Below are positions 26,958-43,474 of a stretch of DNA of 64,000 nucleotides, piece by piece (position 1 is the first letter of the stretch; each line of letters starts with the position of its first letter). The notes under the pieces are model-generated. The model was not told where the DNA came from, searched no databases, and worked only from the letters and a program-made list of their open reading frames with translations. A program made the position numbers and the translations under genes. Location: positions 787 through 64,786 of the forward strand of contig URSF01000008.1 of assembly GCA_900550445.1 (NCBI GenBank). Reading direction: 5' to 3'. The DNA is from an uncultured Rhodospirillaceae bacterium. Lineage in GTDB: Bacteria; Pseudomonadota; Alphaproteobacteria; CAAGCB01; CAG-977.

Positions 26958-28166
26958 ATGATTTTAAGACCTGATTATATTAATGCAATAACCCCGTATA
27001 TTGACGCACCGTTTGTTAAAATTCTGACAGGTATCCGACGTTCCGGAAAATCAACCATATTAAAAATGTTGGCTGAGGAACTGAAGGGGCGCGGTGTTCC
27101 TGAGAAAAATATTATAACGTACAAGCTTGATAACATTGAGTATGAGGATATAACGGCAAAGGCCTTTTATGACAGAGTAAAAACGGAACTTGCGCAAACC
27201 GGTAAAACGTATTTGTTTTTTGATGAAATTCAGGAAATCCCGTCATGGGAGAAAATTGTCAATGATTTAATGCAAAATGAAAACGTCGATATCTGTGTTA
27301 CCGGTTCGAACTCTCGAATGTTATCGTCTGAAATATCAACATACTTAACCGGCAGGTATGTTTCTTTTTTAGTGTATCCTTTATCTTTTACAGAATTTTT
27401 GACCTTTAAAAAACAATACACGCAGATTAAAGACCCGCATCAGGAGTTGCTTGATTATATTCAATGCGGCGGTTTTCCGGCGACACGTCTAAAGGAATAC
27501 ACCCCTGATGAAGTCTATACGATTGTTCGGGATATTTATTCGTCAACAATTTACACCGATATCGTCAAACGCAATCAGATCAGAAAAGCAGATTTGTTAG
27601 AACGTGTCGTGCGTTATACATTCAGCAATATCGGTCAGACATTCTCAGCTTATTCCATTGCGAAATACTTGAAATCGGAAAACAGAAAAATTGATAACGA
27701 AACAATTTACAGTTATTTGGAAAAGCTCGAAAAAGCCTTTATTTTGTTCAGATGCTCCCGTTATGATTTGCAGGGTAAAGAGATACTGAAAACACAGGAA
27801 AAATTTTATGTGGCTGACCCTACTTTGCGTTATGCGGTTTTGGGGTACTCTCCGGACAGCGTGGCCGGCATGCTTGAAAACATCATCTATTTAGAACTTC
27901 GCAGAAGGGGATATTCCGTATATGTCGGAAAAACTTTAAAGGGAGAAATTGATTTTGTGGCGACCAAGCAAAATGAAAAGATTTATGTACAGGTAACACA
28001 GAAAATTAACAACCATGAAACCGAATTGCGCGAATACTCTCGATTGTTGGACATTCAGGACAACTATCCTAAATACGTTTTAAGAACCGATGATTTTGCA
28101 AAGGGAAACTATCAAGGGATCCGCACAATGCACGTAGCCGACTTTTTGTTGGATAACAGCTTTTAA
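26958..28166 (+). CDS. AAA-type ATPase of the DUF4143 class (COG1373-like)
   Basis: Start at ATG 26958, 7 nt after GGAGA. P-loop GIRRSGKSTIL, Walker B YLFFDEIQ. The C-terminal part resembles DUF4143 proteins. Confidence 0.8.
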   Translation: MILRPDYINAITPYIDAPFVKILTGIRRSGKSTILKMLAEELKGRGVPEKNIITYKLDNIEYEDITAKAFYDRVKTELAQTGKTYLFFDEIQEIPSWEKIVNDLMQNENVDICVTGSNSRMLSSEISTYLTGRYVSFLVYPLSFTEFLTFKKQYTQIKDPHQELLDYIQCGGFPATRLKEYTPDEVYTIVRDIYSSTIYTDIVKRNQIRKADLLERVVRYTFSNIGQTFSAYSIAKYLKSENRKIDNETIYSYLEKLEKAFILFRCSRYDLQGKEILKTQEKFYVADPTLRYAVLGYSPDSVAGMLENIIYLELRRRGYSVYVGKTLKGEIDFVATKQNEKIYVQVTQKINNHETELREYSRLLDIQDNYPKYVLRTDDFAKGNYQGIRTMHVADFLLDNSF

Positions 28167-28185
28167 AATGAGCATACTCATTATG
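28166..28185. repeat. palindrome copy 2 (imperfect)
   Basis: AAATGAGCATACTCATTAT, directly after the ATPase stop codon. Confidence 0.8.
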
Positions 28186-28215
28186 TCATCTTGACGATTT
28201 TTTTATAAGAACTTT

Positions 28216-28237
28216 CATAATGAGCATGCTCATTATG
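28216..28237. repeat. 22-bp perfect palindrome, copy 3
   Basis: CATAATGAGCATGCTCATTATG. Confidence 0.9.
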
Positions 28238-28311
28238 TCGCCAGATTTCCGTTGTTAGTAACTAACCGATTTTTTGATGTTTTTATAATTGCATTTCTCT
28301 GTTAGTTACAA

Positions 28312-28905
28312 TCACCCAATCGACTGCAAGGCCTGAATAATGTTTTTCGGATTTGACCGGTAGTAACCGGATAAGGTACTAACCGACGAATGTCCGGATA
28401 TCTGCTGAATTAAAGGCAACGGGTATCCGGCATCCATCAGTCGGGTCAACACGGTCGCTCTTAAACTATGGCACCGATACTGGTTATCAAGTCCGACCGC
28501 ATCAAACACCTGCCTGAACATATAGATGATCTGTTGCTTCGACAGAAAGCCGCCTTTGTTTGACCGAAACAGATAGTCATCAGAGCTAACCGACGGATTT
28601 AAACCCGAAAGGTATTTCGAATACCGTTTCAGCTCTTTGCGCAGTCGGTCGTTTATATAAACCTGTAACGACTTCTTGTGCCCCTTGTTTTGTTCGGGTT
28701 GTAACAAGAAACTGTCACGCGGCACCCAACCCTCATCATAAACTTGACCGATGGTCAGCTTCTGAACCGAGTGCACCCGTAAAGCTGTGTTCAACATAAA
28801 CTCAAACATCGCTCGATTGCGTTCACCGTTCGGCATGTCGTCAATACACCGTAAACAGTTTTTGATGTCGATTTCAGTTAACAATTTTGCTTTACCCCGT
28901 TTCAT
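28312..28905 (-). CDS. short (catalytic-domain-only) tyrosine recombinase
   Basis: 197 aa from the ATG at 28905 (SD GGGAGG). Motifs: NTALRVHSV (Arg I), HSLRATVLT (HxxR), GHSSVSTLSGYY (H...Y). There is no N-terminal core-binding domain, and the size is that of FimB/FimE. Confidence 0.8.
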   Translation of the reverse strand: MKRGKAKLLTEIDIKNCLRCIDDMPNGERNRAMFEFMLNTALRVHSVQKLTIGQVYDEGWVPRDSFLLQPEQNKGHKKSLQVYINDRLRKELKRYSKYLSGLNPSVSSDDYLFRSNKGGFLSKQQIIYMFRQVFDAVGLDNQYRCHSLRATVLTRLMDAGYPLPLIQQISGHSSVSTLSGYYRSNPKNIIQALQSIG

Positions 28906-29010
28906 GGCGTTACCTCCCAAAAATCTTCATTAAAGTAAAAATCCTTTATGTTAATGAATATGTCGTTTTTTACCCCTGTTTTTGTTGTTTTTAAAAACCG
29001 CAGGATTCTG

Positions 29011-29055
29011 CGAAAAAATAAAAAAATCTGAATTAATGTGTATTAATTCAGATTT
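29011..29055 (-). terminator. intrinsic terminator of the 29043-29934 operon
   Basis: 14-bp perfect stem AAATCTGAATTAAT/ATTAATTCAGATTT (29024-29055) followed on the minus strand by a T-rich run. It includes the stop codon. Confidence 0.7.
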
Positions 29056-29576
29056 CGTAATCGCAAATAATAGATGCCGTCCGTTCGAAGCGTGTATCTT
29101 GTCCGATAACCGACAGAAACTTCCTTTAACGGCAAACTCGCCATGTGAGCACTGTCGATCAGCTTTATCCGTTCCGCCTCAATTCGGTCGAATGCCGAAT
29201 AATGGTCAAGCGCATTTGAAAAAAATCGGACAATGACCCCGTTGTTGCAACTGCGTTCGTGTTCCATATCAAAAAGTACGGTTTCAAAGTCGGGTGTTTT
29301 GTGTCGGTACGGTCGCATCACTTCGATTTGCTTGTCGTATACGTCATGAAGAACTTTATTTAACCGACGCGCAAGCTTCATTACCTCTTTGTGTTCGGCT
29401 CCGTTCAGCATCAGATCCTTCAAATCAGCCGAAGACAGGTTTTCAATAATATCGTCCGCAACAGCCTGCGTTTGCAAGCGGGTTAATTTAAATCCCGTTG
29501 ACCGAACCGCGTTAATCAAAGCATACAGGGAGCAAAGCCGGTCAAGCTCCCCTTGTTTATATGGCCTAATATTCAT
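29043..29576 (-). CDS. hypothetical protein, possible papain-fold Cys peptidase-like
   Basis: 177 aa. N-terminal GELDRLCSLYALINAV (candidate nucleophile Cys) and later LDHYSAF (candidate His). 11-nt overlap with the upstream DUF3768 gene. Confidence 0.55.
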   Translation of the reverse strand: MNIRPYKQGELDRLCSLYALINAVRSTGFKLTRLQTQAVADDIIENLSSADLKDLMLNGAEHKEVMKLARRLNKVLHDVYDKQIEVMRPYRHKTPDFETVLFDMEHERSCNNGVIVRFFSNALDHYSAFDRIEAERIKLIDSAHMASLPLKEVSVGYRTRYTLRTDGIYYLRLRNLN

Positions 29577-29919
29577 CAGCCCTCATCACCGTTAAAACAC
29601 GACGGGTAACAGTTTCATCACTGGGATCGGGAGACAAACATTCCAGATCAATATCGTAGTAATCAATCTTCCAAAAATAAGCCGTACCATTCAGGTCAAT
29701 TTTACCGAAGTCGTGTTCACCGTACGGGTCGTTGTTACCGTTAAACTCATTAAAGGTACGGACAAGGTTCATTAAAGTTATCAGCTCCGATTGAGGCAAA
29801 CTTGATACCCCTGAGGTCATGAATACTTGTCCGCCGATAAACGTTCGTCTGAACCGGTCGTTTAATACCTGTATTTTTAAGGTTTTTTCGTCAAAATGAC
29901 GTTTATTTTCATGGCTCAT
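29566..29919 (-). CDS. DUF3768-like protein
   Basis: ~117 aa from the ATG at 29919 (the ORF track starts at GTG 29934). The block NDPYGEHDFGKIDLNGTAYFWKIDYYD...DPSDETVTRRVLTVMRADEY matches my recollection of DUF3768. Confidence 0.65.
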   Translation of the reverse strand: MSHENKRHFDEKTLKIQVLNDRFRRTFIGGQVFMTSGVSSLPQSELITLMNLVRTFNEFNGNNDPYGEHDFGKIDLNGTAYFWKIDYYDIDLECLSPDPSDETVTRRVLTVMRADEY

Positions 29920-30007
29920 AACTTTAACCCCCACCCCTTAAAAAACGCACAAAAGTATCCTGCCGCCAAGAAGCGGTTAAACAGTTTCAAATTGTGCGAG
30001 ATTGCTC

Positions 30008-30048
30008 AAAAAAAAATACCTACCACCGTTTTTTCGATGGTAGGTATA
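30008..30048 (-). terminator. intrinsic terminator of the 30113-30964 operon
   Basis: ATACCTACCA/TGGTAGGTAT 10-bp stem (30016-30048) followed on the minus strand by T8. Confidence 0.65.
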
Positions 30049-30112
30049 GTATACAAAAAACAGGTCAAATTGTCAAATTATTGCCGTTTTTCAATATGTT
30101 AGTCGTTTCCGC

Positions 30113-30613
30113 CTAAGCTGTTTTCGCCAGATTAAATAATCGATATAAAGCCGTATCTTTTTTCAAACGAACCGTCTCCGGAAATTCGTCATAGTTCAAA
30201 CTGTCGGTCAACAACCCGATGGTACTGATCGATTGTTCCCAGTGCAGGGCAACAAACTCGTCTTGGGGGTGCAGATAGCCTCCGATTATAAATGAGTTAA
30301 ACTCCTCTGAATAGCTCATGCCAAAAATGTACAGGGTTTCCTTTCCTTTTCTTTGCACCCAGTATTCGGATCGTTCCCAGAGCTTATACAGATTGTTCAC
30401 AGAAAGAATAACCTGTTCATCGTTGTTCTCTATTCCGATACCGTCGATAAACGTGTTGGGCGGATAAACGGGAATACCTTTTAAATACTTCGGAAAGTCT
30501 TCAATCACTTTACGAAGCTTGTCTTTATCAACATTTTGAAAAGCGTAATCCCTGTCTTCCGGGCTTAGGATATAAGAGCGGAGCTGCTCTTTCATTGTCT
30601 TATTCTTTTTCAT
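30113..30613 (-). CDS. hypothetical protein
   Basis: 166-aa ORF, 3-nt gap from the upstream gene. No family recognised with confidence. Confidence 0.55.
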   Translation of the reverse strand: MKKNKTMKEQLRSYILSPEDRDYAFQNVDKDKLRKVIEDFPKYLKGIPVYPPNTFIDGIGIENNDEQVILSVNNLYKLWERSEYWVQRKGKETLYIFGMSYSEEFNSFIIGGYLHPQDEFVALHWEQSISTIGLLTDSLNYDEFPETVRLKKDTALYRLFNLAKTA

Positions 30614-30616
30614 GGG

Positions 30617-30964
30617 CTATTTCCTCCTGTTTCGACGGACGGTGTTTCGTTTTCTTTCCTGTCGCTCCTGATAGTAGCTTGAGCTTTCATAAGTGGCACG
30701 TCTGAGCCATCTAGACGCCCTCAGCATTTCTGAAATCGGTGCCGTCGCAACATTAAAAATGCCCTTTATTTCATAGAAAATATCGTAAAGACTTTCAGGC
30801 AGTTTGGGCAGGTAATATCCTTTCTGATATGCCCATTGGTATCGGATAAGATATTTTCTCAGTTCTTGCTGATTGTATGTGTGGTGCGGCCGTTTATTTT
30901 TACCGGTAATACCGCACTGACCGTAGCCGACATAGCTGTAGTTATTGAATTTTTTTCTATACAT
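30617..30964 (-). CDS. hypothetical protein with a basic C-terminal tail
   Basis: 115-aa ORF. The tail is QERQERKRNTVRRNRRK. No family recognised. Confidence 0.5.
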   Translation of the reverse strand: MYRKKFNNYSYVGYGQCGITGKNKRPHHTYNQQELRKYLIRYQWAYQKGYYLPKLPESLYDIFYEIKGIFNVATAPISEMLRASRWLRRATYESSSYYQERQERKRNTVRRNRRK

Positions 30965-31067
30965 GTTTTACCTCGCGAGTAAAAAATAACCACCCGACAA
31001 CCGTGTGGTTTTCATGTATAAAATTATTCAATTACCAAAATGAGGGGGCTTACTCTTTTAAAAACAA

Positions 31068-31733
31068 TCAATAACAGAGAAGTTTCTTTTCGAACTTTGC
31101 TTTAATTTCTTTCCAGTTCGGCATTTTCGAAGACAGGAGCCTGTAAAAATCTTCATCATGCCGCGGATAAAAGGTATGGCAAAGTTCGTGAATAATAACG
31201 TAATCAATCGCTTGCTTACTCGCTTTAATCAGATCGGGATTCAAAACGATTTCGTGTCGTTTCAAGTAACTGCCCCAACGCTTTTTCAGGCGTCTGATCT
31301 TTAATTCGGGCGGCGACAAATTCGGAAAAGACTTTAAACATTCCGTCAGCCGTTGTGTGAAAACGACTTTTGCCCGCGACAAAAGCCAACGTTGAAAATC
31401 GGCCGTGATTTCATCGGATTTTTGTGGCGCTGAGGATAAAATATACAACCTGTTTTTCGTTATTTTAACGCGGTTTTTATAAGCAGCTTTTTCGATAATG
31501 ACCTGATATTGACGCCCCAGATACAAGACGGAAGATCCTGAAAGAAATTCCGTCGGTTCTTTTCTGTTGAACTGTTGAAAATATTTTTTTTGCTTTTCGA
31601 TCCATGCTTCTTTGCGTTTAATGAACGCGTTAATCTGTGTATCGCTTGCCTCTGTCGGTGCTTTTATCACAACGGACAGATCGGGATGAACTTCTGCCGC
31701 AATCGATTTTCGAAGTTCCCTTATAATATTCAT
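31068..31733 (-). CDS. DUF45/YgjP-type zinc metallopeptidase (M48-like)
   Basis: 221 aa. HExxH in VIIHELCHTFYPRHDEDF. 1-nt overlap with hsdR. This family is commonly found next to hsdR. Confidence 0.85.
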   Translation of the reverse strand: MNIIRELRKSIAAEVHPDLSVVIKAPTEASDTQINAFIKRKEAWIEKQKKYFQQFNRKEPTEFLSGSSVLYLGRQYQVIIEKAAYKNRVKITKNRLYILSSAPQKSDEITADFQRWLLSRAKVVFTQRLTECLKSFPNLSPPELKIRRLKKRWGSYLKRHEIVLNPDLIKASKQAIDYVIIHELCHTFYPRHDEDFYRLLSSKMPNWKEIKAKFEKKLLCY

Positions 31734-34700
31734 CAGAGCATATCCTTGTTCTGCACCGCAAGATTCCAGGCTGTTTGCGCAATTTGTTCCACGGTATCGG
31801 CGTTTAATTTTTCTTCGACCTCGTCAAACAAATAGTCTTCAATATCATTGATTACATTGCGTCGGACGCTTAAATCGTTTTGAAAATCAACGATTTTACG
31901 ACTTTGGATAATATGGACGATTTTAGAAATGATCGCATTGTACGTTTCGTCCGGCACATTTAGAAATGGCTTGATGTTGCGATAAAAGGGGTGAAAGGTC
32001 TTTGTGGTTCTGAACATTTCGGGAATATCCGAATCCGTATAATCCTCTACGGCCTGCTGATACGCCTTGGCTTGATTAAGCAGAGCCTTCAAGTCTTCTT
32101 GTTTCGCTGTTTTCAAATCGGAAAGAAGTTTTTCGATCAGATCGCTGAATTTTTTATAAAAGATCTCGTCCTGTCCCCATTTTTCCCGAATGACCTTTTT
32201 TGTCTGAGCCAAGATCGCATCAGCTTTTGATCTGTCCGACAAACCGTTTTTCTGATCTTCGATATAACGGTTAAACTCCTGCATATCGGACAGGCTGATT
32301 TCTTTGGACAGGATTTCTGCCTCGCCCGCGTTGACATATTTATCCAGCAGTTTGATAATCTGATCTTTGTATTTTGAAAAGTCGACCGTTTGCGCGCATG
32401 CCAGTTGGGTTGTTTTTTTGATTTCGATATATTTTTTCAAAGTAAAACGGTATCGTTCCAACGTATCAGCGTCGACTTTATCGTAAAAATCGTACAAAGA
32501 CGTGCAGACGGAAAACTGATTGATACAAGCATTCACGTCTTCATAAAAAGCCTCGCGAATTCGTTCGTCGTTTTTCAACAACATAACGTAGGCGTCCGTA
32601 TTATTCTTATCTGTGACGGGGGAAAAAGCGGCATCCAAGCGATCAAAGATATTTTTTAATAATTCGATTTGACTGTCCGTGTCCAGCAGAGCGTTTTCAA
32701 TATCTTTTGGATCGAAATTTGAAAACAGTTCAAGGGCGTTTTTCAGATTTTTCGCGTTTTTGGAATAATCGATGATCAGTCCGGCTTTTTTGCATTGTTT
32801 GCCCGCATCACCGTTAAAGACGCGGTTGACACGTGCGATTGCTTGCAACAGATTATGATCCTTTAGCTGTTTTGCCAAATACAACACCGTGTCGCGCGGT
32901 GCATCGAAACCGGTCAAAAGTTTGTCTACGACGATCAAGAGTTCGCATCCTTCAGGATTCTTTTTATAGTCCCGAATGATTTGTTTTTCGCGCGTTTCCA
33001 AAGATCCGTATTTGTGTTTTTGTTCAGAAAGGTAGTCCGTAACGACTTTTTTATGATCGGCAAGAGCATCGTCAGCGCCATCTTCCGCAGGCGAGTCCGA
33101 AATTACGACTTCACAACGCAAATCCCCCAACATTTCAAACGCTTTTTTGAACATAACGGCGGCATATTTACTGGGCGCGACAAGCTGACCTTTCAGCCCC
33201 GTATCTCTGAAATTTTCCATAAAATGATCAAACACATCCAAAGCAATCATTTCTATGCGTTGCGCCGTTTCTTCCAATACGGATGCCGATACGCATTTTT
33301 TATTGAAATCTGCGCGTTGCTCCGGCGTCATTTTATCGAATATGCGTTCGTAAAATTTATCGGCGTTCGGGTTGACCGTCTGTTCAACAAAGCGCCCCTG
33401 ATAGATCAAAGGCAAAACGGCTCCGTCGGCTTCTGCTTCCGAAATCGTATATTCGTCAATCAATCCGCCAAATTTGTTGATGGATTGAGATTTAGTCAGG
33501 AAGCCGTCTTTTGTCTTTATCTTTTTCATCAACGGCGTGCCGGTAAACGCGATCTGACATGCACGAGGGAGGATTTGGTTCATCATGCCGTTGGCATCAC
33601 CGCCCTGAGTACGATGCGCTTCGTCAATCAAAACGAACAGGTTTTCATCGTTGTCGGTAAAATCCGTTTTCTGGTCGAACTTATGCACCAACGTTGTAAT
33701 GACGTCCGACGTTTTTGACCGTATTTTTTCGATCAGGTCGTTGCAGGACGTCGCCTGCTGAACGCCTTTTTTGATGTTGCACGCGGCGAAAGTATCACGA
33801 ATTTGCACGTCAAGATCACGGCGATCGGTTACGACGATAATGCGCGGATTTTTAACGGTTTCGATCAGGTTTTTAACCAACATCACCATCGTTAGCGATT
33901 TTCCCGATCCCTGCGTGTGCCAGATCAGTCCTCCGTGGCGTTTGCCGTTTTCGTCGCGTTCTTTAACGCGTTTTATTGTTTTTTTTATGGCGAAGAACTG
34001 CTGATATCGTGCGATTTTTTTGACGCCGTTATCGTAGACGATAAAGTTTTTCACAAGCTCAATCAATCGTTCGGGACGCAGAATGCTAAAGATGCCGCGA
34101 TCCTGTTGTGTCGGCGTTTCCTTTGGTTTTTGCAAATAAGCCCCGCGTAACAGGTCGGCGCCGATCTGTTTGACAATGTCAGGGTCTACGGGACGATTGA
34201 CGCTGTCAAGCACTGCGGCGGTAAATGAATCGTCCGCCCCCCGTTCTTTCCAATGCGAATAAAATTCGAACGGCGTCAACATCGTTCCATATCTGATTTG
34301 ACTGATGTTCGAACAGACTAACAGCTGAGGGAACAAAAAGAATTTAGGTGTTTGCCCCTGTTTTTGATTGCGAACCATCTGATAAACCGCTTCGTCCACG
34401 GAAACGGAGGCTTTTTTGTTTTCGATAACGGCAAAGGGAATACCGTTGACAAACAGGACGATATCGGGGCGACGATTACGATCTTCCGAAATTTCAAATT
34501 CCGCAACGACGTGATAAGTATTTTTCGTCGGATCGTCCCAGTTGATAAAGCGCATTTGGGGCGAAGTTTTTTTCCCGTTTAACAGTTCAGACACGGCTTT
34601 TCCGCTTAAAAGGTCGGAAAATATATTTTCCGATGCGGCGATCATACCGTCGTCAAGCCGAACTTTTTCCAAAGAAAAAATCGCTTCGCGAATGCTTTTG

Positions 34701-34894
34701 TCGGAAATGGTTTCATCGTTGATTGCGCGGACGGCGTTAAACGCGATATCGCGCAGGATATACTGATTTTTGCCGTCGCGTAATTCGTTGACCTTGTGGC
34801 GCGGGATATAGCGATAGCCCAGATTGATCAGCTGAAGCAAAGCGGGAATCTGCGACGAAGACGCTTCGTCAAAATCGGGAAGTGAGAAAGTCAT
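31733..34894 (-). CDS. hsdR: type I restriction endonuclease subunit R
   Basis: 1053 aa. N-terminal nuclease region, SF2 motor with HTQGSGKS (motif I) and LIDEAHRTQGG (DEAH), and a helical C-terminal domain. Confidence 0.95.
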   Translation of the reverse strand: MTFSLPDFDEASSSQIPALLQLINLGYRYIPRHKVNELRDGKNQYILRDIAFNAVRAINDETISDKSIREAIFSLEKVRLDDGMIAASENIFSDLLSGKAVSELLNGKKTSPQMRFINWDDPTKNTYHVVAEFEISEDRNRRPDIVLFVNGIPFAVIENKKASVSVDEAVYQMVRNQKQGQTPKFFLFPQLLVCSNISQIRYGTMLTPFEFYSHWKERGADDSFTAAVLDSVNRPVDPDIVKQIGADLLRGAYLQKPKETPTQQDRGIFSILRPERLIELVKNFIVYDNGVKKIARYQQFFAIKKTIKRVKERDENGKRHGGLIWHTQGSGKSLTMVMLVKNLIETVKNPRIIVVTDRRDLDVQIRDTFAACNIKKGVQQATSCNDLIEKIRSKTSDVITTLVHKFDQKTDFTDNDENLFVLIDEAHRTQGGDANGMMNQILPRACQIAFTGTPLMKKIKTKDGFLTKSQSINKFGGLIDEYTISEAEADGAVLPLIYQGRFVEQTVNPNADKFYERIFDKMTPEQRADFNKKCVSASVLEETAQRIEMIALDVFDHFMENFRDTGLKGQLVAPSKYAAVMFKKAFEMLGDLRCEVVISDSPAEDGADDALADHKKVVTDYLSEQKHKYGSLETREKQIIRDYKKNPEGCELLIVVDKLLTGFDAPRDTVLYLAKQLKDHNLLQAIARVNRVFNGDAGKQCKKAGLIIDYSKNAKNLKNALELFSNFDPKDIENALLDTDSQIELLKNIFDRLDAAFSPVTDKNNTDAYVMLLKNDERIREAFYEDVNACINQFSVCTSLYDFYDKVDADTLERYRFTLKKYIEIKKTTQLACAQTVDFSKYKDQIIKLLDKYVNAGEAEILSKEISLSDMQEFNRYIEDQKNGLSDRSKADAILAQTKKVIREKWGQDEIFYKKFSDLIEKLLSDLKTAKQEDLKALLNQAKAYQQAVEDYTDSDIPEMFRTTKTFHPFYRNIKPFLNVPDETYNAIISKIVHIIQSRKIVDFQNDLSVRRNVINDIEDYLFDEVEEKLNADTVEQIAQTAWNLAVQNKDML

Positions 34895-34921
34895 GACCGC
34901 TTTTCCTTTCGTTACATAAAA

Positions 34922-35881
34922 TTAAATTAAATCATAATTTCGCGTTATATAGGGCTTTGTTTCAGCTATATCATAAAGATTATCGATAATTTTCCCATTT
35001 TGAAAATGGAAGGGAACCGTAAAGGCGCCGGAATAAGAACGCTTTCCTTCAATGACGGGAATATAAAAATCATTTGTGTTTTCTATTCTATAATCAAGGG
35101 AACTTCTTGCTAATTGGGAACAGGTATCAATTTCGTTATATAAAGACATGGGGGAATAACGTACGGCAAACAGAATTAACTTAGCGGCGATTGCATTGAG
35201 GCAATTTTCAAGCGTTGCCAGATGAAAAACCTTATTTCCTTTGTGCTTTAAATTGTTATAAGCATCGTACCAAGGTATTGATTTAGTCGGTTCTTTTGCA
35301 TTCCAATTTTCAAAGGGGCAACATTTAAACGGGTTGGCATACCCGACTAATGATATTTTATATTTAGTTAAATCAACTAAATCCAATAATTTAACATAGT
35401 CAGATGTTCTTTCATTTTTTCCTAAATTATACAGTTTAAAGCTGTTTTCAATTTCCGTACAGGAAAGAATGAGTAATTCTTTTATCTTATGGCTATACGT
35501 TCTTAATCCTTCTGCGGAAGGTTCTACATAAAGCAATATCTCTTGTAATTTTTGGATAAGAATTCCTAAATCCCGCTTTGCTCTGCACAGCTCGACAGTA
35601 GTAAAAGCCAACTCATCTTGGATTTTGACATTTAAAAACGGTTTCCAGATATGTTTGTTTTTTATACCTATATCCATTCTTTCTTTTTTTATTATTTCAT
35701 ATTCAAAATAATTTTTTATAACATCTTCTATGTCATGCGAGTTATCAAAAATAGTCGTGTTTATTATCTGCGGAGCAAAATCATATTTATCAATTTGTAA
35801 AAAAACATTTTGCCGTTTTTCATTTTCATATGCGATTAAGCGATACTTTTCTTTTTTAGAAAAATAAACATCTGTTTTCAT
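34922..35881 (-). CDS. hypothetical protein inserted between hsdS and hsdR
   Basis: 319-aa ORF in strongly AT-rich DNA. 1-nt gap from hsdS and 27 nt from hsdR. No P-loop. Conserved-looking block IPWYDAYNNLKHKG...ATLENCLNAIAA. Confidence 0.65.
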   Translation of the reverse strand: MKTDVYFSKKEKYRLIAYENEKRQNVFLQIDKYDFAPQIINTTIFDNSHDIEDVIKNYFEYEIIKKERMDIGIKNKHIWKPFLNVKIQDELAFTTVELCRAKRDLGILIQKLQEILLYVEPSAEGLRTYSHKIKELLILSCTEIENSFKLYNLGKNERTSDYVKLLDLVDLTKYKISLVGYANPFKCCPFENWNAKEPTKSIPWYDAYNNLKHKGNKVFHLATLENCLNAIAAKLILFAVRYSPMSLYNEIDTCSQLARSSLDYRIENTNDFYIPVIEGKRSYSGAFTVPFHFQNGKIIDNLYDIAETKPYITRNYDLI

Positions 35882-35882
35882 T

Positions 35883-37097
35883 TTAATTCACTTTCACTCG
35901 GATTTTCCCGGTCAGAAGTTTTTGCATCAGGGCTTTTTTTTCCAGTTTAAAAGCCTCCAGTTTTTTGTTTAACAGTTCGATTTCTTCATCGGCTTTGGAA
36001 AGAATGTCCGCGATAGCCTTTTGCTCTTCCTGGCAAGGGCATTGAATAGGCAAAGATTTAATAATTTCTGCAGATAAATTTCCTTGCCCACCCTGTAAAT
36101 ATTTTCTTAAAATATTTTTCTTTTTATTTTGCAATAGGCAGCATAAAAAATATGAACCTATATATTGGCTGCGAATACATAAAATTGCCTGATTAATTGC
36201 ACCATCTATTTTTGAAATATTTACTTCTCCACTTGTTGCCCCATATAATGCATATAGCACATCTCCTTTGGATACTAATTTTGCAGATGAGCTTTCTAAC
36301 GCTTTGTTTGTAATAAAAAGTTCAGTCCTACCCAAATGTATTTCACCTGAACGAATAAAGGGGATGTTTCCTCCATAATATGTCTGATTTTTTACAGACG
36401 GAGTGCCCCCCGAAAAAGTTTTACAAACATCCCCCAACTTAACTTCGTACCAAGGGGTGGAGAAGCCTTTGAGGCGGTGTTTGCCGGTAAGGAGCTGTTG
36501 CATCAAGGCTTTTTTCTGAATTTTCTTTTTTTCAATCAACGCCGACAATTTTTCAATGCCTTCATCCCAACAGCTTAAAATCTCCGCAATCTTCTCTTGC
36601 TCTGCTAATGGGGGAAGAAGAATTGGAAGTAAGGAATATTCTTCAGAGTTTATACCTGGCTGACCACTTCTCATTGAATAAACCTTTACCCAATTCCAAT
36701 ATTTTTGCGTGTGGCTATACAGAAAAAGAAAGTATGGATTTATTTTGTTTTCATCTAAGATAAATCTTATTAAGTATCCTGCAAAAGCTATTTTTTCATT
36801 TGTAATACCATGCAAATATGTTTTCCCGACTGTAGCTCCAGTCCTTGCAAATAAAAGATTATTTTTAGAAAGTAATTTTTCTAATTTATAGTATTTAACA
36901 GACACTCGACCTTCGCTAATATATTTACCATCTTCTGAAATATCTGTTATTCTTAAATATAAGGGGAGATCTCTATTAAATGGGACGGCAGATTCATTTA
37001 GACCATAATCCGGACTATTTAAGCAAAGCTCTCCCAGCTTTTTAACACTCCACCCCTCAGGAATCTTCTGATCAATCTTTGTCATTAGCTTTAACAT
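35883..37097 (-). CDS. hsdS: type I R-M specificity subunit, two TRDs
   Basis: 404 aa. The two conserved helical spacers are IQKKALMQQLLTGKHRLKG and LEKKALMQKLLTGKIRVK, with two variable TRDs. Confidence 0.9.
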   Translation of the reverse strand: MLKLMTKIDQKIPEGWSVKKLGELCLNSPDYGLNESAVPFNRDLPLYLRITDISEDGKYISEGRVSVKYYKLEKLLSKNNLLFARTGATVGKTYLHGITNEKIAFAGYLIRFILDENKINPYFLFLYSHTQKYWNWVKVYSMRSGQPGINSEEYSLLPILLPPLAEQEKIAEILSCWDEGIEKLSALIEKKKIQKKALMQQLLTGKHRLKGFSTPWYEVKLGDVCKTFSGGTPSVKNQTYYGGNIPFIRSGEIHLGRTELFITNKALESSSAKLVSKGDVLYALYGATSGEVNISKIDGAINQAILCIRSQYIGSYFLCCLLQNKKKNILRKYLQGGQGNLSAEIIKSLPIQCPCQEEQKAIADILSKADEEIELLNKKLEAFKLEKKALMQKLLTGKIRVKVN

Positions 37098-38950
37098 CCT
37101 TTTGTTTTTTGTATAATGGCTTCTGTTAATTTTTTTAATAAAGGATGTTTTGTTTCAAAACTAGATGTGTTAAACTTTTCAGCCAGATCACTTTTTAGTT
37201 TATAAATAATCTCATCAGATTTATCGTTCAATCCATTTTTATGAAGAAAAATTTTTATTTTTTCCAAAATAGGGCGAGATGTATTTTCATCTTCAAAATT
37301 GAGTTCAGCATTTTCCTTTTTGATAAGAGGATTAAGACACGCTTTAATGAACTCTAGATTCAATGTATCTTCTATTGTCCCTCCAACAATAATATCTCCA
37401 CACAAGTCTCTAATAGTCATTACATTGGATGGTGAAAATGGAGCCCCTAACTCTATAATTTTTTCTTTATATTTTTTTCCATCATCGTCGTCATCTACAA
37501 TAACAATACAATCAACATCTGAATATTTTAATAACGAGGCAACCTGAACAATGTTTCCTCCTTGCCCATTTGTAATTCCAATGCAAGAGTTCACATCAAC
37601 TTTTTTTATACTTTTTCTTAATAGGTTAAAGTCAGATTTCCCTTCAACTAACACTTTATACGGTGTCAGTAAATCTTTAAGAACATTGATGCCAAAACCC
37701 ATTCTTAAAACTTCTTCATCTGCTAATATGATATCTTCTCTTATTTGCTTTATCTGAGTTTTCCCTTTTGATTTTTTGACAATAAAGTGGCGACTCATAT
37801 TTTTATTATCAATCATAAAAGGAGAATGAGTGGCGACAAAAACGTAATTATTTTTTCCAATCTTAATAAGTTCATCTCGCATATACCGGATTCCCGATGG
37901 ATGCAGGTGATTTTCTGGCTCATCAATTATAATAATTTGATCTTTACATTTTTCTTTTTTGTTTGAAATTGATAAATGGAGAATTAAAGATATAAAATGC
38001 TTAAACCCCTGGCTCCTTTCATCCATTCCAAAAAACTCATCTTCATTATCTTTATCCGTTATATATACATTTAATATTTTAGTTGAATTTTCTATCTCTA
38101 CATCAATTGAAACCCCATGCTCCTTCCATACTTCATTGATATATTTAGTTGCATTTTTGCTGAGTTGCCGAGATAGCGTACGTGTTTCTGCTGGTGTAAG
38201 AGATGATATTTTTTCTTGAATTTTCTCTTTAGTATCTAAATCACAAAGAGCAAATAAATTTGTCAAAGGAATCGAAATAGAATTATCTGCAGCAAATGCG
38301 TTTAAATCAATAGACTTTGTTATTAGATACTTTTCTTCAGCTTTCCATATTGATAATTCTTGATTAGGTGTTTTTAAGTTTGAAAAAACGTATTTTTGCA
38401 AAAGTTCAAATAAATTATCTTCATCTAATAAAGTGTATGACTTTTTTTCTTCTTCTGTTATTCCGTCATTATCTTTTATAGTGCATAATTTTTCATTTGG
38501 ATTTTGGCTTTGCTGTATCATAGCAAAAGAAAATTGGCTTATATCAAATGGCTCCCACAATATATTATAGACAGAAGAAAATGATGTCTTATCTTTCTCT
38601 AAGAAGACATTTTTTTCATATTCAGTTATTTTAAATACTTTTTCAAATTTAGGAGAACAATTTACATATTTTTTTAATTCTTTTTTCCATTCGTCTTCTT
38701 TATTAAATTTATATCTATAATACAAATCTACATATTTTTCTTTTGAATCTCTATATGCTATATCTTTAAATTTATATGTTTTTTTATTAATTGTCTCTGA
38801 CAGTAATGAAATTGCATCTAATAAATTACTTTTTCCGGCTTCATTTAATCCGACAAATACAGAAGTCCAACTATCTCCGTATTTCTCAATGGGGATAACG
38901 ACATCATAAATTGATTTATAATTACGTATTTCTATTTCACTTAAATACAT
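37091..38950 (-). CDS. OLD-family ATP-dependent endonuclease (ABC-type ATPase + TOPRIM)
   Basis: 619 aa. Walker A GLNEAGKSNLLDAI, Walker B IIIIDEPENHLHP, VATHSP. TOPRIM Glu in VLVEGKSD and the acidic DxD cluster VIVDDDDDG. 7-nt overlap with hsdS and 13 nt after hsdM. Confidence 0.85.
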   Translation of the reverse strand: MYLSEIEIRNYKSIYDVVIPIEKYGDSWTSVFVGLNEAGKSNLLDAISLLSETINKKTYKFKDIAYRDSKEKYVDLYYRYKFNKEDEWKKELKKYVNCSPKFEKVFKITEYEKNVFLEKDKTSFSSVYNILWEPFDISQFSFAMIQQSQNPNEKLCTIKDNDGITEEEKKSYTLLDEDNLFELLQKYVFSNLKTPNQELSIWKAEEKYLITKSIDLNAFAADNSISIPLTNLFALCDLDTKEKIQEKISSLTPAETRTLSRQLSKNATKYINEVWKEHGVSIDVEIENSTKILNVYITDKDNEDEFFGMDERSQGFKHFISLILHLSISNKKEKCKDQIIIIDEPENHLHPSGIRYMRDELIKIGKNNYVFVATHSPFMIDNKNMSRHFIVKKSKGKTQIKQIREDIILADEEVLRMGFGINVLKDLLTPYKVLVEGKSDFNLLRKSIKKVDVNSCIGITNGQGGNIVQVASLLKYSDVDCIVIVDDDDDGKKYKEKIIELGAPFSPSNVMTIRDLCGDIIVGGTIEDTLNLEFIKACLNPLIKKENAELNFEDENTSRPILEKIKIFLHKNGLNDKSDEIIYKLKSDLAEKFNTSSFETKHPLLKKLTEAIIQKTKGC

Positions 38951-38963
38951 TTTAACTCCTTTC

Positions 38964-40463
38964 TTAGATTTCTAATTCTTTAAGATATGCAGACATTTTG
39001 TCCTGAACAGCACTAAGTTGTGCTTCCAAATCGGCGATTTCGGCTTTGACGGCGGACAAGTCAATTTCCTCTTCCTCCTCAAACGTATCGACATAACGCG
39101 GAATATTCAGGTTAAAGTCGTTTTCTTCAATCTCGTCAAAGCTTGCCAAATGCGAAAATTTTTCAATTTCCGAACGGTTTTTATAAGTCTCAAATATCTT
39201 GGTGATGTGCTCCGGTTCAAGCGTGTTTTGATTTTTTCCCGCCTTAAATTCTTTGCTGGCATCAATAAACAAGACGTCTTTTCGTTCTTGATTTTTACCG
39301 CCTTCCTGTCGGGACTTGTCAAAAATCAAAATGGCGACGGGAATTCCCGTCGTTTGGAACAATCCTGCCGGCAAACCGATAACCGCATCCAGCAGATTTT
39401 CCTTTATCAGCGCTTGGCGGATGCGCCCCTCCGAACTGCCGCGAAACAAAACACCGTGCGGAACAATTACCGCAACGCGCCCCGATTTTTCTTTGGCGGT
39501 GGCGATCATATGCGAAATAAACGCATAATCCCCCTTGCTGGCCGGAGGCATTCCGCGATCAAAACGATGATAGATGTCATTTTCCAAATGCTTTTCGCCC
39601 CATTTATCTAAAGAAAAAGGAGGGTTTGCGACAATCACATCGAACTGCATCAGTTTTTCATCCTCTTTCAGCAAAGGATTGTTCAGCGTGTCTCCCCATT
39701 CCAAACGGGCGGAATCTTTGTGGTGCAAAAACATATTCATACGCGCCAGATTGTACGTCGCTCCGGTTTTTTCCTGACCGTACAAGGCATAGTCTTTGGA
39801 TTCTTGTTTTTCGACTTCTTCGCCCGCCAACAAAAGCAGACCGCCCGAACCGCAGGTCGGGTCGCAAATGCGATCCCCGGGCTTTGGCATCGCCAGTTTT
39901 GCCAGCAATGACGCAACGACTTTCGGGGTGTAGAACTCACCCGCCTTTTTCCCCGCATCCGACCCAAAGCGTTCGATCAGATACATATACGCGTTACCCA
40001 GCAGGTCGCCGTCAACTTCCGACAGGTCAACTTTGCTAAAATCACTGATCATATCCCGCAACATTTTGTTACGTTGTGATGTCTGACCCAAAACGGACTG
40101 GCTATTAAAATCAACCGTAAAAATATCGTGCAAAGGTCCGTTTGCCTCTTCAATTTTATGTAACGCGATGTTCAGAAGTTCGCCTATATTGTCCGCGTTC
40201 TGGTTTTCATAAATGTCGGAAAAGGTCGCCCCCTCAGGCAAAACAAAGCGCGCGTTTTTCAGTTTCAACGCAATGCGATCTTTGTCGTCACCGTAACGGT
40301 CTTTCAGTTTTTTGACTTCGGCTTGCTTGATGTCGCTGATATATTTAAAGAATAAAAACGCTAAAATATAATCCTTAAAAATACTGCTATCCACAACGCC
40401 CCGCGCAGAATCCGCAGCGTTCCACAGCAGTTTATTCAATTCGTCTTGAGTTAAAACAGCCAT
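38964..40463 (-). CDS. hsdM: type I R-M DNA methyltransferase subunit M
   Basis: 499 aa. HsdM N-terminal domain, AdoMet motif ICDPTCGSGGLL, catalytic VIVANPPFS. Confidence 0.95.
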   Translation of the reverse strand: MAVLTQDELNKLLWNAADSARGVVDSSIFKDYILAFLFFKYISDIKQAEVKKLKDRYGDDKDRIALKLKNARFVLPEGATFSDIYENQNADNIGELLNIALHKIEEANGPLHDIFTVDFNSQSVLGQTSQRNKMLRDMISDFSKVDLSEVDGDLLGNAYMYLIERFGSDAGKKAGEFYTPKVVASLLAKLAMPKPGDRICDPTCGSGGLLLLAGEEVEKQESKDYALYGQEKTGATYNLARMNMFLHHKDSARLEWGDTLNNPLLKEDEKLMQFDVIVANPPFSLDKWGEKHLENDIYHRFDRGMPPASKGDYAFISHMIATAKEKSGRVAVIVPHGVLFRGSSEGRIRQALIKENLLDAVIGLPAGLFQTTGIPVAILIFDKSRQEGGKNQERKDVLFIDASKEFKAGKNQNTLEPEHITKIFETYKNRSEIEKFSHLASFDEIEENDFNLNIPRYVDTFEEEEEIDLSAVKAEIADLEAQLSAVQDKMSAYLKELEI

Positions 40464-40464
40464 T

Positions 40465-41019
40465 TTATATCTCCGTATTTAAAGACAATTCCAATAATTT
40501 TGCTTTTTTCTCTGCCAAACGTCGCGACAATTCCTTTTCCTTTAAAAGCAAAAAGTATGTTTCCGCAAGAAGTTTCTGCCGTTTCAAGGGCAACGGCGGA
40601 ATATCCAAACTTTCAATGCCCGATCGAACAATAGCCTGCAAAGTGCCGGGATTCCTGCGAGAGGACATTTGTGCTTGTCCCGATTTTGAATTAAGATAAA
40701 AAACCAGAAACTTGGGCAAAAAATGTTTGTCCCGAACGGAAAGCACAAACAACAAATTGGAAGCAATGGCGTCATGAGCACCTTGATACAGTGCGGCTTT
40801 AAATTCGCCTCTGCTTGACAGAAGAACGTCCTCTGCCTTTAACAGATAATCCTTCTTGAAATGTTTGGGAGTGAAACAAACCGGGACATCCGCGATAATC
40901 CCGCCGCCGATCACGTCCTTCGGCTGAACAACTTGATATAATCCGTCCGACATATTCGGCACTGCTCCTCGAAAAGGATAGCCTGCTCTGATTTCGGCAA
41001 TGTCACAAAGTCGTGTCAA
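40465..41019 (-). CDS. half-size HsdS-like protein (single TRD + one conserved helix)
   Basis: 184 aa. N-terminus LCDIAEIRAGYPFRG is typical of S-subunit TRDs. C-terminal coiled helix LLKEKELSRRLAEKKAKLLELSL. 1-nt gap from hsdM. Confidence 0.75.
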   Translation of the reverse strand: MTRLCDIAEIRAGYPFRGAVPNMSDGLYQVVQPKDVIGGGIIADVPVCFTPKHFKKDYLLKAEDVLLSSRGEFKAALYQGAHDAIASNLLFVLSVRDKHFLPKFLVFYLNSKSGQAQMSSRRNPGTLQAIVRSGIESLDIPPLPLKRQKLLAETYFLLLKEKELSRRLAEKKAKLLELSLNTEI

Positions 41020-41253
41020 TGTAATTCCTCCAGGTTTTTAAACAGAATAGATAAAACAGATGGAAATTACAATAGAAAAAAAACGCACTTTTTTATTGAC
41101 AGCGACGCCGCAAAAAGATATCTCTAAAAAAAGAGGGCGGAAGTCCGCCCTCTTTGACAGCCGGAACAACGCCCGACAATCTTTCGCAAATTTTGTTTTA
41201 TCGCGTTATTTCCGCCGCTGTCAAGGTTTAAACTTTATTAAGCGGAGGTCTGT

Positions 41254-41544
41254 ATGACAGCGAACATGACAATAGCATCAGATATTTTGAAACACGTAGG
41301 TTGGGATTCCAAGTCCGATTGGTATGTCGGAATTGCGTCGGATGCATCAACCCGTTTATTTCATGACCACAACGTTGACGAAAAAAACGGTCGTTGGATT
41401 TATCGTGACGCCCAAAGCGAAACGGACGCACGAGACACGGAACGATACTTGTTGCAGAATTATCCTTTTCAAGGCGGTACGGGCGGCGGAAATTATCCAC
41501 GCTATGTTTATGCGTATAAAATCACCCCTACGACCAAAGAATAG
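41254..41544 (+). CDS. small hypothetical protein (possibly GIY-YIG-like)
   Basis: 96 aa. WYVGIASDASTRLFHDH ... ARDTERYLL ... YVYAYK loosely recalls the GIY-YIG motif order. Confidence 0.4.
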   Translation: MTANMTIASDILKHVGWDSKSDWYVGIASDASTRLFHDHNVDEKNGRWIYRDAQSETDARDTERYLLQNYPFQGGTGGGNYPRYVYAYKITPTTKE

Positions 41545-41714
41545 TATCAGCTCTGCATTTATCGGGTGTCCGTAAATATGGGATTCCGGTAAGACGACAT
41601 AAACGCTTTGGCCTATTTAAGTCCCAAAAGGTTTTTATAACGGAAGTTTTCAATATGTCCGCATATGCAGATAATTAAGAAAGATTTATGCGACGTGAAA
41701 GGCAGGTGATATAT

Positions 41715-41891
41715 ATGGCAACAAATCCGCCGAAGGGCGACGGACACCGTAACGGTGCAATCAAAGATCGGTCTCAGGTTTATAATCCGAAAACAGATCG
41801 TTGGGTTAAACGCGATGCCGATACGGGGCGGTTTATTGACCAAAAGGCCGATGACAAACCGTTTATAAGCGTTCGCAAAGAAAAGCAATAA
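41715..41891 (+). CDS. small conserved hypothetical protein
   Basis: 58 aa from the ATG at 41715 (SD AGGTGA). Sequence MATNPPKGDGHRNGAIKDRSQVYNPKTDRWVKRDADTGRFID..., followed by a terminator. Confidence 0.5.
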   Translation: MATNPPKGDGHRNGAIKDRSQVYNPKTDRWVKRDADTGRFIDQKADDKPFISVRKEKQ

Positions 41892-41905
41892 TTCTTAAAA
41901 AAAAG

Positions 41906-41938
41906 CCGCTCTGATAAAAATCAGGGCGGTAGCTTTTT
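41906..41938 (+). terminator. intrinsic terminator
   Basis: CCGCTCTGAT-AAAA-ATCAGGGCGG (1 mismatch) followed by TAGCTTTTT. Confidence 0.55.
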
Positions 41939-42199
41939 AGTGCTGTTTTGGGAATTTGTTTTTGAGGCTTTTAAACAGTTTTAAAAAAAAGATGTTTAAG
42001 CAAACTGATAAAAACACTCCTGTTTAATATCGACTTTAAACCTGTTTTTATATCGGCATACGATCGGGAATGATTTCGAGATTGCTAAGCTACGAAGGCA
42101 AGTTCAAGAAGGATTATCAAGACCATACCGGTTTGATTAACTTCTGGGTCGTTTTACCTGAAATACGCAGGCGGGGCATTAAGGTTCCGCCTGTTTTGT

Positions 42200-42541
42200 T
42201 TATTCCTCTGCCGATTTAAACCAGTTTTTTCGTCTGTGTTCAAGGGCGTTCAGTACTTTTAAAACGTTGCCGACCTGAACGGTCGTATCCCCGTGCAACA
42301 GCTTTAAAACCGTCGGCTTGGACAGTTTCGCCTCTTTGGCCAGGACGTCCGCAGAAACGCCCAATATCGTTTTGTAACGGTTTATTTGTTCGACAATAAT
42401 GCGCCACTTTAAAATGTCGGTCACTTTATCGTTCGTGAAATCGATTTTCGGAACGCCGTACGTTTTTCGTTTTTGTTTGCTGTTGCGTTTCTTTTTTACA
42501 AAATCAAAATCGGTATCAACATCATCAAAATCAGCTGTCAT
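42200..42541 (-). CDS. HTH DNA-binding protein (XRE-like) at the island right end
   Basis: 113 aa. LGVSADVLAKEAKLSKPTVLKLLHG is a helix-turn-helix. Acidic N-terminus, then a basic linker. Confidence 0.65.
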   Translation of the reverse strand: MTADFDDVDTDFDFVKKKRNSKQKRKTYGVPKIDFTNDKVTDILKWRIIVEQINRYKTILGVSADVLAKEAKLSKPTVLKLLHGDTTVQVGNVLKVLNALEHRRKNWFKSAEE

Positions 42542-42775
42542 GGCGTCTCCCGTTTTCTTTACAGGCTATTCCGGCTTTTTATGTTAGTCAATTATAATTA
42601 TCTTTAAGGATTTTTATATTTATCCCTTTTCTCTGTTTACAAGATTAAGGGTATGATTTAACGTGATAAATATGCTAACAAAACTGCTAACATTTTTTTA
42701 TGAAAAGGAGCTCAAGACTTGATAAAAACCGCAAAAATCCGTCATTTAACGTCATCAAAAAATCAAAATCATACC

Positions 42776-42996
42776 TCCAGGTTCCCCAGCCACTTTGAAA
42801 GCCAAGTCGTTGAAAAAACGAACTTGGCTTTTTTATGATCGGGGAAATGTTAGTGGTACTAATAAAGCTGCTAACGATGTTCGTTCGCACAGGCGATTGT
42901 CATGACATTGTACAATCGCGGTTATTCTTAATTATGCCATTCTGTACGTTTCTTGAAATACCTGTCTTTCTCCTGATGAAAAACAGATCTGGATTT
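42776..42996 (+). repeat. attR plus right copy of the ~220-bp direct repeat
   Basis: Exact 18-nt core TCCAGGTTCCCCAGCCAC, a copy of the tRNA terminator, and a diverged copy of the int 5' end. Confidence 0.85.
42902..42996 (+). pseudogene. integrase 5' stub (remnant of an older element)
   Basis: ATGACATTGTACAATCGCGGTTATTCTTAA gives MTLYNRGYS*, against MTLYNRGYSYYAIL in the intact int. Homology stops at about 42996. Confidence 0.75.
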
Positions 42997-43434
42997 AAGC
43001 CATCTGTATGTGTAGGTACGAACGGCATTTAGCTTTAAAAGACTTTCTGAAAAGGAGGCTTCTTTAAAAAGGAAACACATTTAGGCAGATTTTTCACATA
43101 TTTTTCGAGCCCTTACAATTTTCCTATAAAGTTTGCGCTTTCTACAGAAATCTACAGGACATTTGAAAGGGCCGTTGGCGCATTGGGAACTTTAAATGCC
43201 CTTGAATTAAAATACATCACGAGATGTATAACAGAGGGGCTTTTGGGGAGTTGTTTTTTGGGAATAAAAAAGAGAAAATCAATCACCGCTAAATTAACTC
43301 TGAAATACACGTTTGAATCATAAGAAACATGAAAGCCGCTTATTATGAAAACGTTTAGAAGAAGAAAAAAATTCCTTGACATTTTAGCAAAAATAATAAC
43401 AATATGTGATATGCTGAAAATACACTTATTGTCT

Positions 43435-43461
43435 AAGCAGGATATGATGCCTGCTTTTTTT
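43435..43461 (+). terminator. hairpin plus T-run in the leader of the tail-fibre gene
   Basis: AAGCAGG-ATATGATG-CCTGCTT followed by T6, ending 14 nt before ATG 43475. A TTGACA box lies at 43376-43381. Confidence 0.45.
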
Positions 43462-43474
43462 ATGGGAAAAAATA

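Follow-up and report, generated by a model that had tools for sequence, protein, structure and literature searches.

Type I restriction-modification (R-M) operons that carry a nested effector are a classic example of layered immunity. In EcoprrI the gene order is hsdM-hsdS-prrC-hsdR and PrrC is an anticodon nuclease, which is almost the only nested type I effector that, to our knowledge, is understood. Here we describe an arrangement of the same kind in a stretch of 64,000 nucleotides (nt) from an uncultured Rhodospirillaceae bacterium (contig URSF01000008.1), hereafter called the window, in which the slot between hsdS and hsdR is taken by an unnamed gene of 319 amino acids (aa) that we refer to as ORFX. 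The explanation that we favour, at roughly even odds (about 50%), is that ORFX encodes a latent anti-phage defence effector which is co-expressed with the type I enzyme. Its role in defence is one that we infer, and inference from embedding in known defence systems has a published basis; that the protein is an RNase, and that the type I enzyme's state sets it off, are speculative.

Besides the slot, ORFX has in common with PrrC a linkage to R-M genes that is conserved across taxa, and by analogy both proteins may follow the same logic of a second line of defence. The differences lie in the protein itself. In agreement with the first-pass annotation, which had seen no P-loop, ORFX is devoid of an ABC-ATPase: it has no Walker A motif, for there is no GK[ST] and its GK dipeptides are GKN, GKR and GKI only, and no ATPase domain of Pfam matches it at E ≤ 1. 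The PADLOC model of PrrC matches neither ORFX (E ≤ 1) nor any of 94 diverse aligned members of its family (E ≤ 10), and length and architecture also set it apart, since ORFX has beta-rich ends round a central helical core. ORFX may also be compared with the single-protein HEPN nucleases of abortive infection, HepS, DARNA/PD-T7-3 and ApeA, which have a canonical Rx4H motif and proven tRNA cleavage: it is likewise a single polypeptide with a putative sensing part and a putative helical effector core, and its family likewise includes standalone genes on prophages or in defence islands, but the PADLOC models of these systems are unmatched save for two sub-threshold ApeA matches among the 94 members. 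Payne et al. (2024) argued that a gene lying inside a type I R-M system is as a rule one of defence, and they added 145 such candidates to PADLOC. ORFX is nested in the same manner as these HEC and PDC candidates, yet no HEC or PDC model matches its family, an absence that is likely due to the embedded clade being found almost only in uncultured gut genomes. Finally, family members occupy exactly the gpA-gpQ locus of P2-like prophages, an anti-phage hotspot (Rousset et al. 2022, PMC9122126) whose cargo includes old, tin and DUF4238. Nested effectors of R-M operons are, then, an already known kind; the family of ORFX is new to annotation.

The placement of ORFX one nt after hsdS and 27 nt before hsdR, on the same strand, was confirmed from the sequence: the hsdS stop codon ends at 35883 and ORFX starts at 35881 (TAA-A-ATG), while the spacer from the end of ORFX at 34922 to the hsdR start at 34894 contains AAAGGAAAAG. 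Counts of predicted promoters and terminators stay at the level of shuffled sequence, and no terminator was found between hsdS, ORFX and hsdR. We took a census of gene neighbourhoods with one genome per species, which gave 80 loci, 28 close ones with at least 52% identity to ORFX and 52 distant ones. The 28 close loci form an exclusive monophyletic clade in a neighbour-joining tree of 119 family members, and in 26 of them the homolog of ORFX lies upstream of a type I hsdR, so that the PrrC position pointed out by the first-pass annotation proves to be a conserved one. In 24 of these 26 loci the homolog overlaps hsdR or stands no more than 27 nt away from it, and in 20 it overlaps hsdS or follows it within 3 nt. 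The loci of the clade come from gut genome bins that bear the labels Alphaproteobacteria, Gastranaerophilales/Melainabacteria, Elusimicrobiaceae, Treponema and clostridia.

Only two close loci depart from this embedding. One, in a Treponema bin (L025), has a 61%-identical copy shortened to 239 aa, which is not beside hsdR and lies near divergently oriented hsdM- and hsdS-like genes. The other (L023) keeps its close homolog at full length and shows no hsd gene up to 10 kb away.

ORFX is a genuine gene, far beyond chance: by our arithmetic, the probability of 319 stop-free codons at 31% GC is about 6e-12, and the codon differences from a 98%-identical copy in an uncultured gut alphaproteobacterium contig (L001) are 12 synonymous and 6 nonsynonymous. 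The first-pass annotation had called it an orphan, which is wrong. There are 148 homologs in a 90%-clustered protein database, and an exhaustive HMMER search of 1.84 billion cluster representatives retrieved relatives in 1,524 clusters (50% identity) at E ≤ 1e-3, 874 of them at E ≤ 1e-10. Its other statement, that no family could be named, holds, for ORFX has no match at E ≤ 1 in scans with Pfam, NCBIfam and PADLOC, and none of the relatives listed in the homolog searches is named by its source. A literature search by the accessions of E. coli and Salmonella homologs and by PHROG number found no mention of the family. The model that does match is that of PHROG 19461 (function unknown), which recognizes ORFX at E 2.3e-47 as well as all 94 aligned members. 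The PF22769 (dCTP deaminase-like) match of member P0115 is C-terminal, outside the shared region of this 248-aa fragment.

Residue conservation, counted over the 94 aligned members, is concentrated in a few polar and aromatic positions. W193, Y208, K212 and H213 are invariant, while K/R134, E143, E145, T159, Y162, P189, F190, W204, Y205 and N209 are kept in at least 96% of the members; among these, K/R134, E143 and E145 each reach at least 99%, position 145 being E or D in all, and N209 reaches 98%. Given the invariant Y208, K212 and H213 and the nearly constant N209, the helix WYDAYNNLKH can be regarded as the family signature; it is the most conserved element of the family, and the same helix that the first-pass annotation had flagged as conserved-looking. 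A basic residue, K or R, stands at position 149 in 98% of the embedded clade, as against 54% of the wide family. The N-terminal residues 1-75 are highly conserved inside the R-M-embedded clade and divergent in solo relatives, and may represent a sensor or docking domain.

The AlphaFold model of ORFX has a mean predicted local distance difference test (pLDDT) score of 90.5, which rises to 95.4 when the helical core is modelled alone. According to the model, the core consists of helices H1 (residues 95-118) and H2 (131-149), an insert of about 50 residues (150-202), and helices H3 (203-221) and H4 (224-242), and the C-terminus of the protein forms beta strands. The invariant and near-invariant residues lie on or near two of the core helices. 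With the whole model, Foldseek searches of the PDB gave no significant match, and the only significant viral match was a fragment of a phage-encoded homolog. With the isolated core, about half of the top 50 PDB matches are HepT/HEPN toxins, which are thereby the nearest solved structures. HEPN domains are defined by an up-down bundle of four helices in which an insert separates helices 2 and 3, an Rx4-6H motif where helix 3 ends, and an acidic residue in helix 2, typically in Ex3[KR]; families which keep the His and lack the Arg exist, such as c2405 and Parep1/8 (Anantharaman et al. 2013, PMC3710099). The core of ORFX resembles the R-M-linked HEPN clades of these authors in several ways. It is modelled as a bundle of helices, the second and third of which are separated by a long insert; E145 is an acidic residue of helix 2 in an E-x3-K/R pattern; Y208-N-x-x-K-H213 has the spacing of the HEPN motif and its polar second residue, the Asn standing four residues before the invariant His; and R-M and Abi genes are found in the neighbourhoods of both. 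Other motifs, namely PLD (HxK), MazG-like ExxE and PD-(D/E)xK, were rejected by eye for misfits in spacing or secondary structure.

The 52 distant loci (28-45% identity) contain mostly solo genes with sizeable intergenic gaps. The domains most often met among their neighbours are those of phage integrases; AIPR, HNH, resolvase and M48 are further recurrent ones, beside housekeeping genes, and PADLOC recognizes AbiU, Gabija, Lit, Old, SoFic and PDC-S proteins. If the gene upstream of a distant member is tightly linked to it, that gene is one of defence: L031 has there a second, independent type I hsdR-M-S set, L058 an Eco57I/ResIII single-chain enzyme, L032 an AIPR-helicase-T5orf172 cassette and L071 a Sacsin/Schlafen giant protein, each directly followed by the family member, and in L045 a member is flanked by an HNH gene and an OLD gene. 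Family members also travel on conjugative plasmids and integrative elements, one of which carries a 47%-identical member beside a HigB-like pair and an integrase. The solo members do not look like parts of type II toxin-antitoxin pairs, since no conserved small partner gene accompanies them in the 80 loci, and the helix-turn-helix gene upstream of member P0111 is part of a neighbouring HigB-like pair. Among phages, Salmonella phage SEN8 has a member between cos and the portal gene, and a copy that shares 91% identity with it is present in 12 E. coli genomes; the one of these copies that was inspected lies between gpA and gpQ of a P2-like prophage. The same location is occupied in at least 10 prophage contigs of IMG/VR, by members of two divergent subfamilies. 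The ORFX family, large and uncharacterised, is thus found as cargo of defence islands, of mobile elements and of the defence hotspots of prophages. The homologs are not found mainly outside defence contexts, and the predicted fold points to no housekeeping family, two outcomes that would have spoken against the first-pass annotation; its overall interpretation, a latent effector or sensor attached to the type I enzyme, is partly supported.

Some details of the prophage and island loci may be added. In the hotspot of the SEN8 type (L081, L083, L092-L103), the member is always convergent with an HNH endonuclease gene, and the prophage of E. coli C21 has in addition a pair whose annotations read RNase A-like domain protein and contact-dependent growth inhibition immunity protein. 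In the second subfamily (L128-L130), the member lies directly against the portal gene, without the HNH gene. In E. coli CS18F (L084; NZ_CP074576.1, 7001-9498), a solo member is found beside a site-specific integrase, in a small island near the vat gene, and 152 nt downstream of it lies the gene for a 449-aa DUF4145 (HEPN) protein with a clear R-N-K-A-A-H motif.

Which parts of the operon are constant and which are exchanged? The window and contig L001 are about 98% identical over 30645-36026, a constant block that comprises ygjP, hsdR, ORFX and the last 143 nt of hsdS, and again over 39024-42204, which holds hsdM and the region upstream. Between these blocks, positions 36027-39023, with the target recognition domains of hsdS and the OLD gene, are replaced as one block. 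The content of the hsdM-hsdS slot differs among loci: in the 22 loci of the close set (L001-L028) that have both genes, the gap between hsdM and hsdS measures 693-2909 nt and is always occupied, the cargo including RhuM (6), DUF6119 (3), Fic (3), DUF3644 (2) and SieB (2), as well as DUF4238, Shedu SduA_C, AbiJ_NTD4, a protein kinase and a GIY-YIG protein. Judging from its gene content, this family of type I operons acts as a hotspot for defence cargo. The first-pass annotation had counted the OLD gene together with ORFX as two accessory genes embedded in the operon, and Pfam and PADLOC do identify an OLD-family gene there; because the cargo of the hsdM-hsdS slot changes from locus to locus, it is to be seen as ordinary, replaceable cargo. 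ORFX, to judge from the same comparison, is to be grouped with hsdR in the stable part of the operon.

The comparison with L001 yields further observations. Inside the replaced block, only the 162-nt central conserved region of hsdS (36463-36624) is common to both contigs, and L001 has a RhuM-family gene and a 453-aa open reading frame in place of OLD. Near-identity ends at 30645, about 420 nt beyond ygjP and inside a 115-aa open reading frame (30617-30964), and L001 continues for 4.4 kb past that end with no match to window positions 28000-44000; from this break it follows that the R-M block may be transferred as a unit or may adjoin a region that varies between strains. Neither of the two open reading frames at 30113-30964 has a Pfam match.

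Taken as a mechanism, our favoured explanation would run as follows. One monophyletic branch of the family would have been captured at the hsdS-hsdR junction of gut-bacterial type I operons, where ORFX would be co-transcribed with the restriction enzyme and is probably translationally coupled. The protein would be a single-chain latent effector that serves as a second line of defence when restriction fails. Its active site may lie in the helical core, with K/R134, E143 and E145 of helix 2 facing Y208, N209, K212 and H213 of helix 3, and the beta-rich N- and C-terminal parts may hold it off until an infection cue is received. The most likely chemistry would be metal-independent cleavage of RNA, of the HEPN type.

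Several results weigh against this explanation. The HEPN lead of the first-pass annotation has weak support in that HepT toxins have the nearest folds, but the scores of the HEPN matches in Foldseek are not significant (E 0.46-2, TM-score 0.41-0.51, root mean square deviation 6-8 Å), and the position of the catalytic HEPN Arg is Tyr in all 94 members, with Y-N-x-x-K-H in the first half of helix 3 instead of at its end. Profile methods do not provide the missing link among the families tested. Pfam scans of ORFX, 10 distant members and family consensus sequences yielded nothing relevant and no HEPN match; weak sub-threshold matches to the models of RiboL-PSP, ApeA and AbiD, a point in favour of HEPN, are confined to one or two of the 94 members, and no more than two members reach E 0.066 with HEPN_RiboL-PSP; sequence searches of the PDB with ORFX and profiles A1 and A2 returned noise only. 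Comparison by hhalign, in three modes, revealed no relationship (probability 0.1) to the genuine HEPN family DUF4145 (motif R-N-K-A-A-H), for which the alignment was built from the gene beside an E. coli homolog, and a regular-expression search of all fetched loci for DUF86/HepT genes as a second HEPN reference found none. An HEPN-like RNase is consequently our leading guess for the chemistry of ORFX, not a classification, and one that we would expect to fail more often than to hold. As to the genomic context, BLAST clustering of the neighbours within four genes in the 80 loci revealed no conserved partner for the solo members, and many of these adjoin genes without recognisable defence function. 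Further, the divergence of ORFX correlates with that of HsdR, HsdM and YgjP at Spearman coefficients of 0.31-0.43, as against 0.79-0.87 among those three proteins, and physical coupling to the enzyme is therefore not indicated. The embedded clade is in fact carried by two HsdR lineages with a mutual identity of only 34%, across which ORFX is 62-65% identical and YgjP 25%. With the weak correlation, this implies that ORFX moved between R-M lineages, yet landed or was retained at the same junction. The YgjP-like metallopeptidase co-diverges with HsdR and HsdM (Spearman 0.86 and 0.79, respectively) and, on this pattern, seems to behave as a core component of this type of operon.

How strictly, then, could ORFX depend on its neighbour? 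In a strict guard of the PrrC style, ORFX would bind the assembled type I enzyme and be silenced by it, and would be set free as a toxin once a phage anti-restriction protein of the Ocr, ArdA or Stp type had disabled this enzyme. Such a guard would account for the position in the prrC slot, the near-invariant adjacency to hsdR with overlapping or closely spaced stop and start codons, the retention of ORFX with the constant hsdR block when other cargo is swapped, the monophyly of a clade with only two of its 28 members outside an R-M operon, and the N-terminal domain that is specific to this clade; moreover, the R-M-bound clade and its solo relatives parallel PrrC and RloC (PMC3458546). It conflicts, however, with the divergence of ORFX from the pattern of HsdR and YgjP, with a family most of which functions without R-M, and with the lack of a PrrC-type NTPase regulatory domain, and we consider it unlikely. 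Still less probable is the bolder combination in which ORFX founds a new class of enzymatic effectors and the embedded clade guards the type I enzyme. The core would then be only superficially HEPN-like and would have an aromatic pocket and its own catalytic set, for which Y-N-x-x-K-H plus E-x-E and a basic residue are the candidates. At the other end lies an autonomous single-gene defence or exclusion protein with its own trigger, which hitch-hikes for expression and co-transfer. The dominance of solo relatives, the copies that stand alone beside the portal gene in P2 hotspots, the general role of such operons as cargo hotspots and the weak co-divergence with the R-M subunits all suit this idea; it leaves the position of ORFX to be explained, for the usual cargo sits in the variable hsdM-hsdS slot and turns over, whereas the ORFX-hsdR junction is fixed across two R-M lineages, and we regard it as fairly unlikely.

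Two further explanations dispense with a toxic effector. ORFX could be an accessory of the restriction enzyme, be it a regulator that binds nucleotides or nucleic acids by a non-catalytic HEPN-like domain, as in MtlR, an assembly or restriction-alleviation factor or a decoy for anti-restriction proteins. The aromatic-rich pocket (Y162, F190, W193, W204, Y205 and Y208) would fit the binding of a ligand or base, the protein lacks the canonical HEPN Arg, non-catalytic HEPN domains do exist (PMC3710099), and the linkage to hsdR is tight; but an invariant K-H pair with two conserved acidic residues and one conserved basic residue looks catalytic, and there is no restriction enzyme that the solo and prophage-hotspot members could assist, which makes the accessory role quite improbable. 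Least probable of all is a mobile-element or phage gene without defence role, for instance in replication, transfer or lysogeny, that has lodged in variable regions. Integrases and resolvases rank with the most frequent neighbours, the family is carried by conjugative plasmids and integrative elements, and PHROGs includes it, but there is no conserved link to replication, transfer or structural genes, and the positions in P2-like phages and R-M operons are those of accessory defence cargo. To return to the latent, co-expressed effector that we favour, it follows from the weak co-divergence and from the many members without R-M that its autonomous form is as plausible as a guarded one of the PrrC style.

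If active, the family would add a new single-protein defence and could be used to test whether the guarding of restriction enzymes is a general strategy or a peculiarity of PrrC. Should the core be an HEPN variant with Tyr for Arg, the chemistry known from that superfamily would be extended; should ORFX found a new class, widespread in gut bacteria, it would be a second, ATPase-free solution to the problem that PrrC solves, firing upon phage anti-restriction proteins. Interest in the family is raised by its size, by its fixed hsdS-hsdR placement across distant gut groups, by its independent use in P2 prophage hotspots, and by the tractable homologs in prophages of cultivable E. coli and Salmonella, among them WP_227534336.1 from the P2-like prophage of E. 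coli C21 and SEN8_1.

The operon of the window consists of seven genes on the minus strand with all gaps of 27 nt or less, of which the half-size hsdS is the first and ORFX the fifth; the start of ygjP and the stop of hsdR have one nt in common. The features are collected below.

Features of ORFX and of its operon in the window (positions counted from the first nucleotide of the window)
Feature	Position	Strand	Details or basis
Half-size hsdS, single target recognition domain, 184 aa	40465..41019	-	Pfam Methylase_S, E 1.2e-6
hsdM	38964..40463	-	Open reading frame list and phmmer census
OLD-family gene, 619 aa, in hsdM-hsdS slot	37091..38950	-	AAA_15 and OLD-like TOPRIM; PADLOC Old, E 1.8e-35
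hsdS, two target recognition domains	35883..37097	-	Pfam Methylase_S x2, E 2.3e-42
ORFX	34922..35881	-	ATG start, 319 aa; unnamed family, PHROG 19461
ORFX, beta-rich N-terminal domain, residues 1-75	35657..35881	-	Predicted secondary structure
ORFX, helix-2 motif HKIKELLILSCTEIE	35447..35491	-	Column counts; E145-x3-K149 fits Ex3[KR]
ORFX, helix-3 motif WYDAYNNLKH, residues 204-213, putative active site	35243..35272	-	Alignment column counts
ORFX, helical core, residues 95-260	35102..35599	-	AlphaFold model
hsdR, 1053 aa	31733..34894	-	Conserved partner in 26 loci
YgjP-like metallopeptidase	31068..31733	-	Pfam PF01863, E 3.2e-52

The G+C content is 0.23-0.39 over OLD, hsdS and ORFX (window positions 34800-39000), as against 0.41-0.50 in hsdM and hsdR; ORFX thus looks compositionally foreign, although it lies in the block that is constant between strains. 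The half-size hsdS, one nt upstream of hsdM, is present in addition to the full-size hsdS, and the same is seen in at least 12 related loci; with these two genes, the operon could in principle produce methyltransferases of two specificities.

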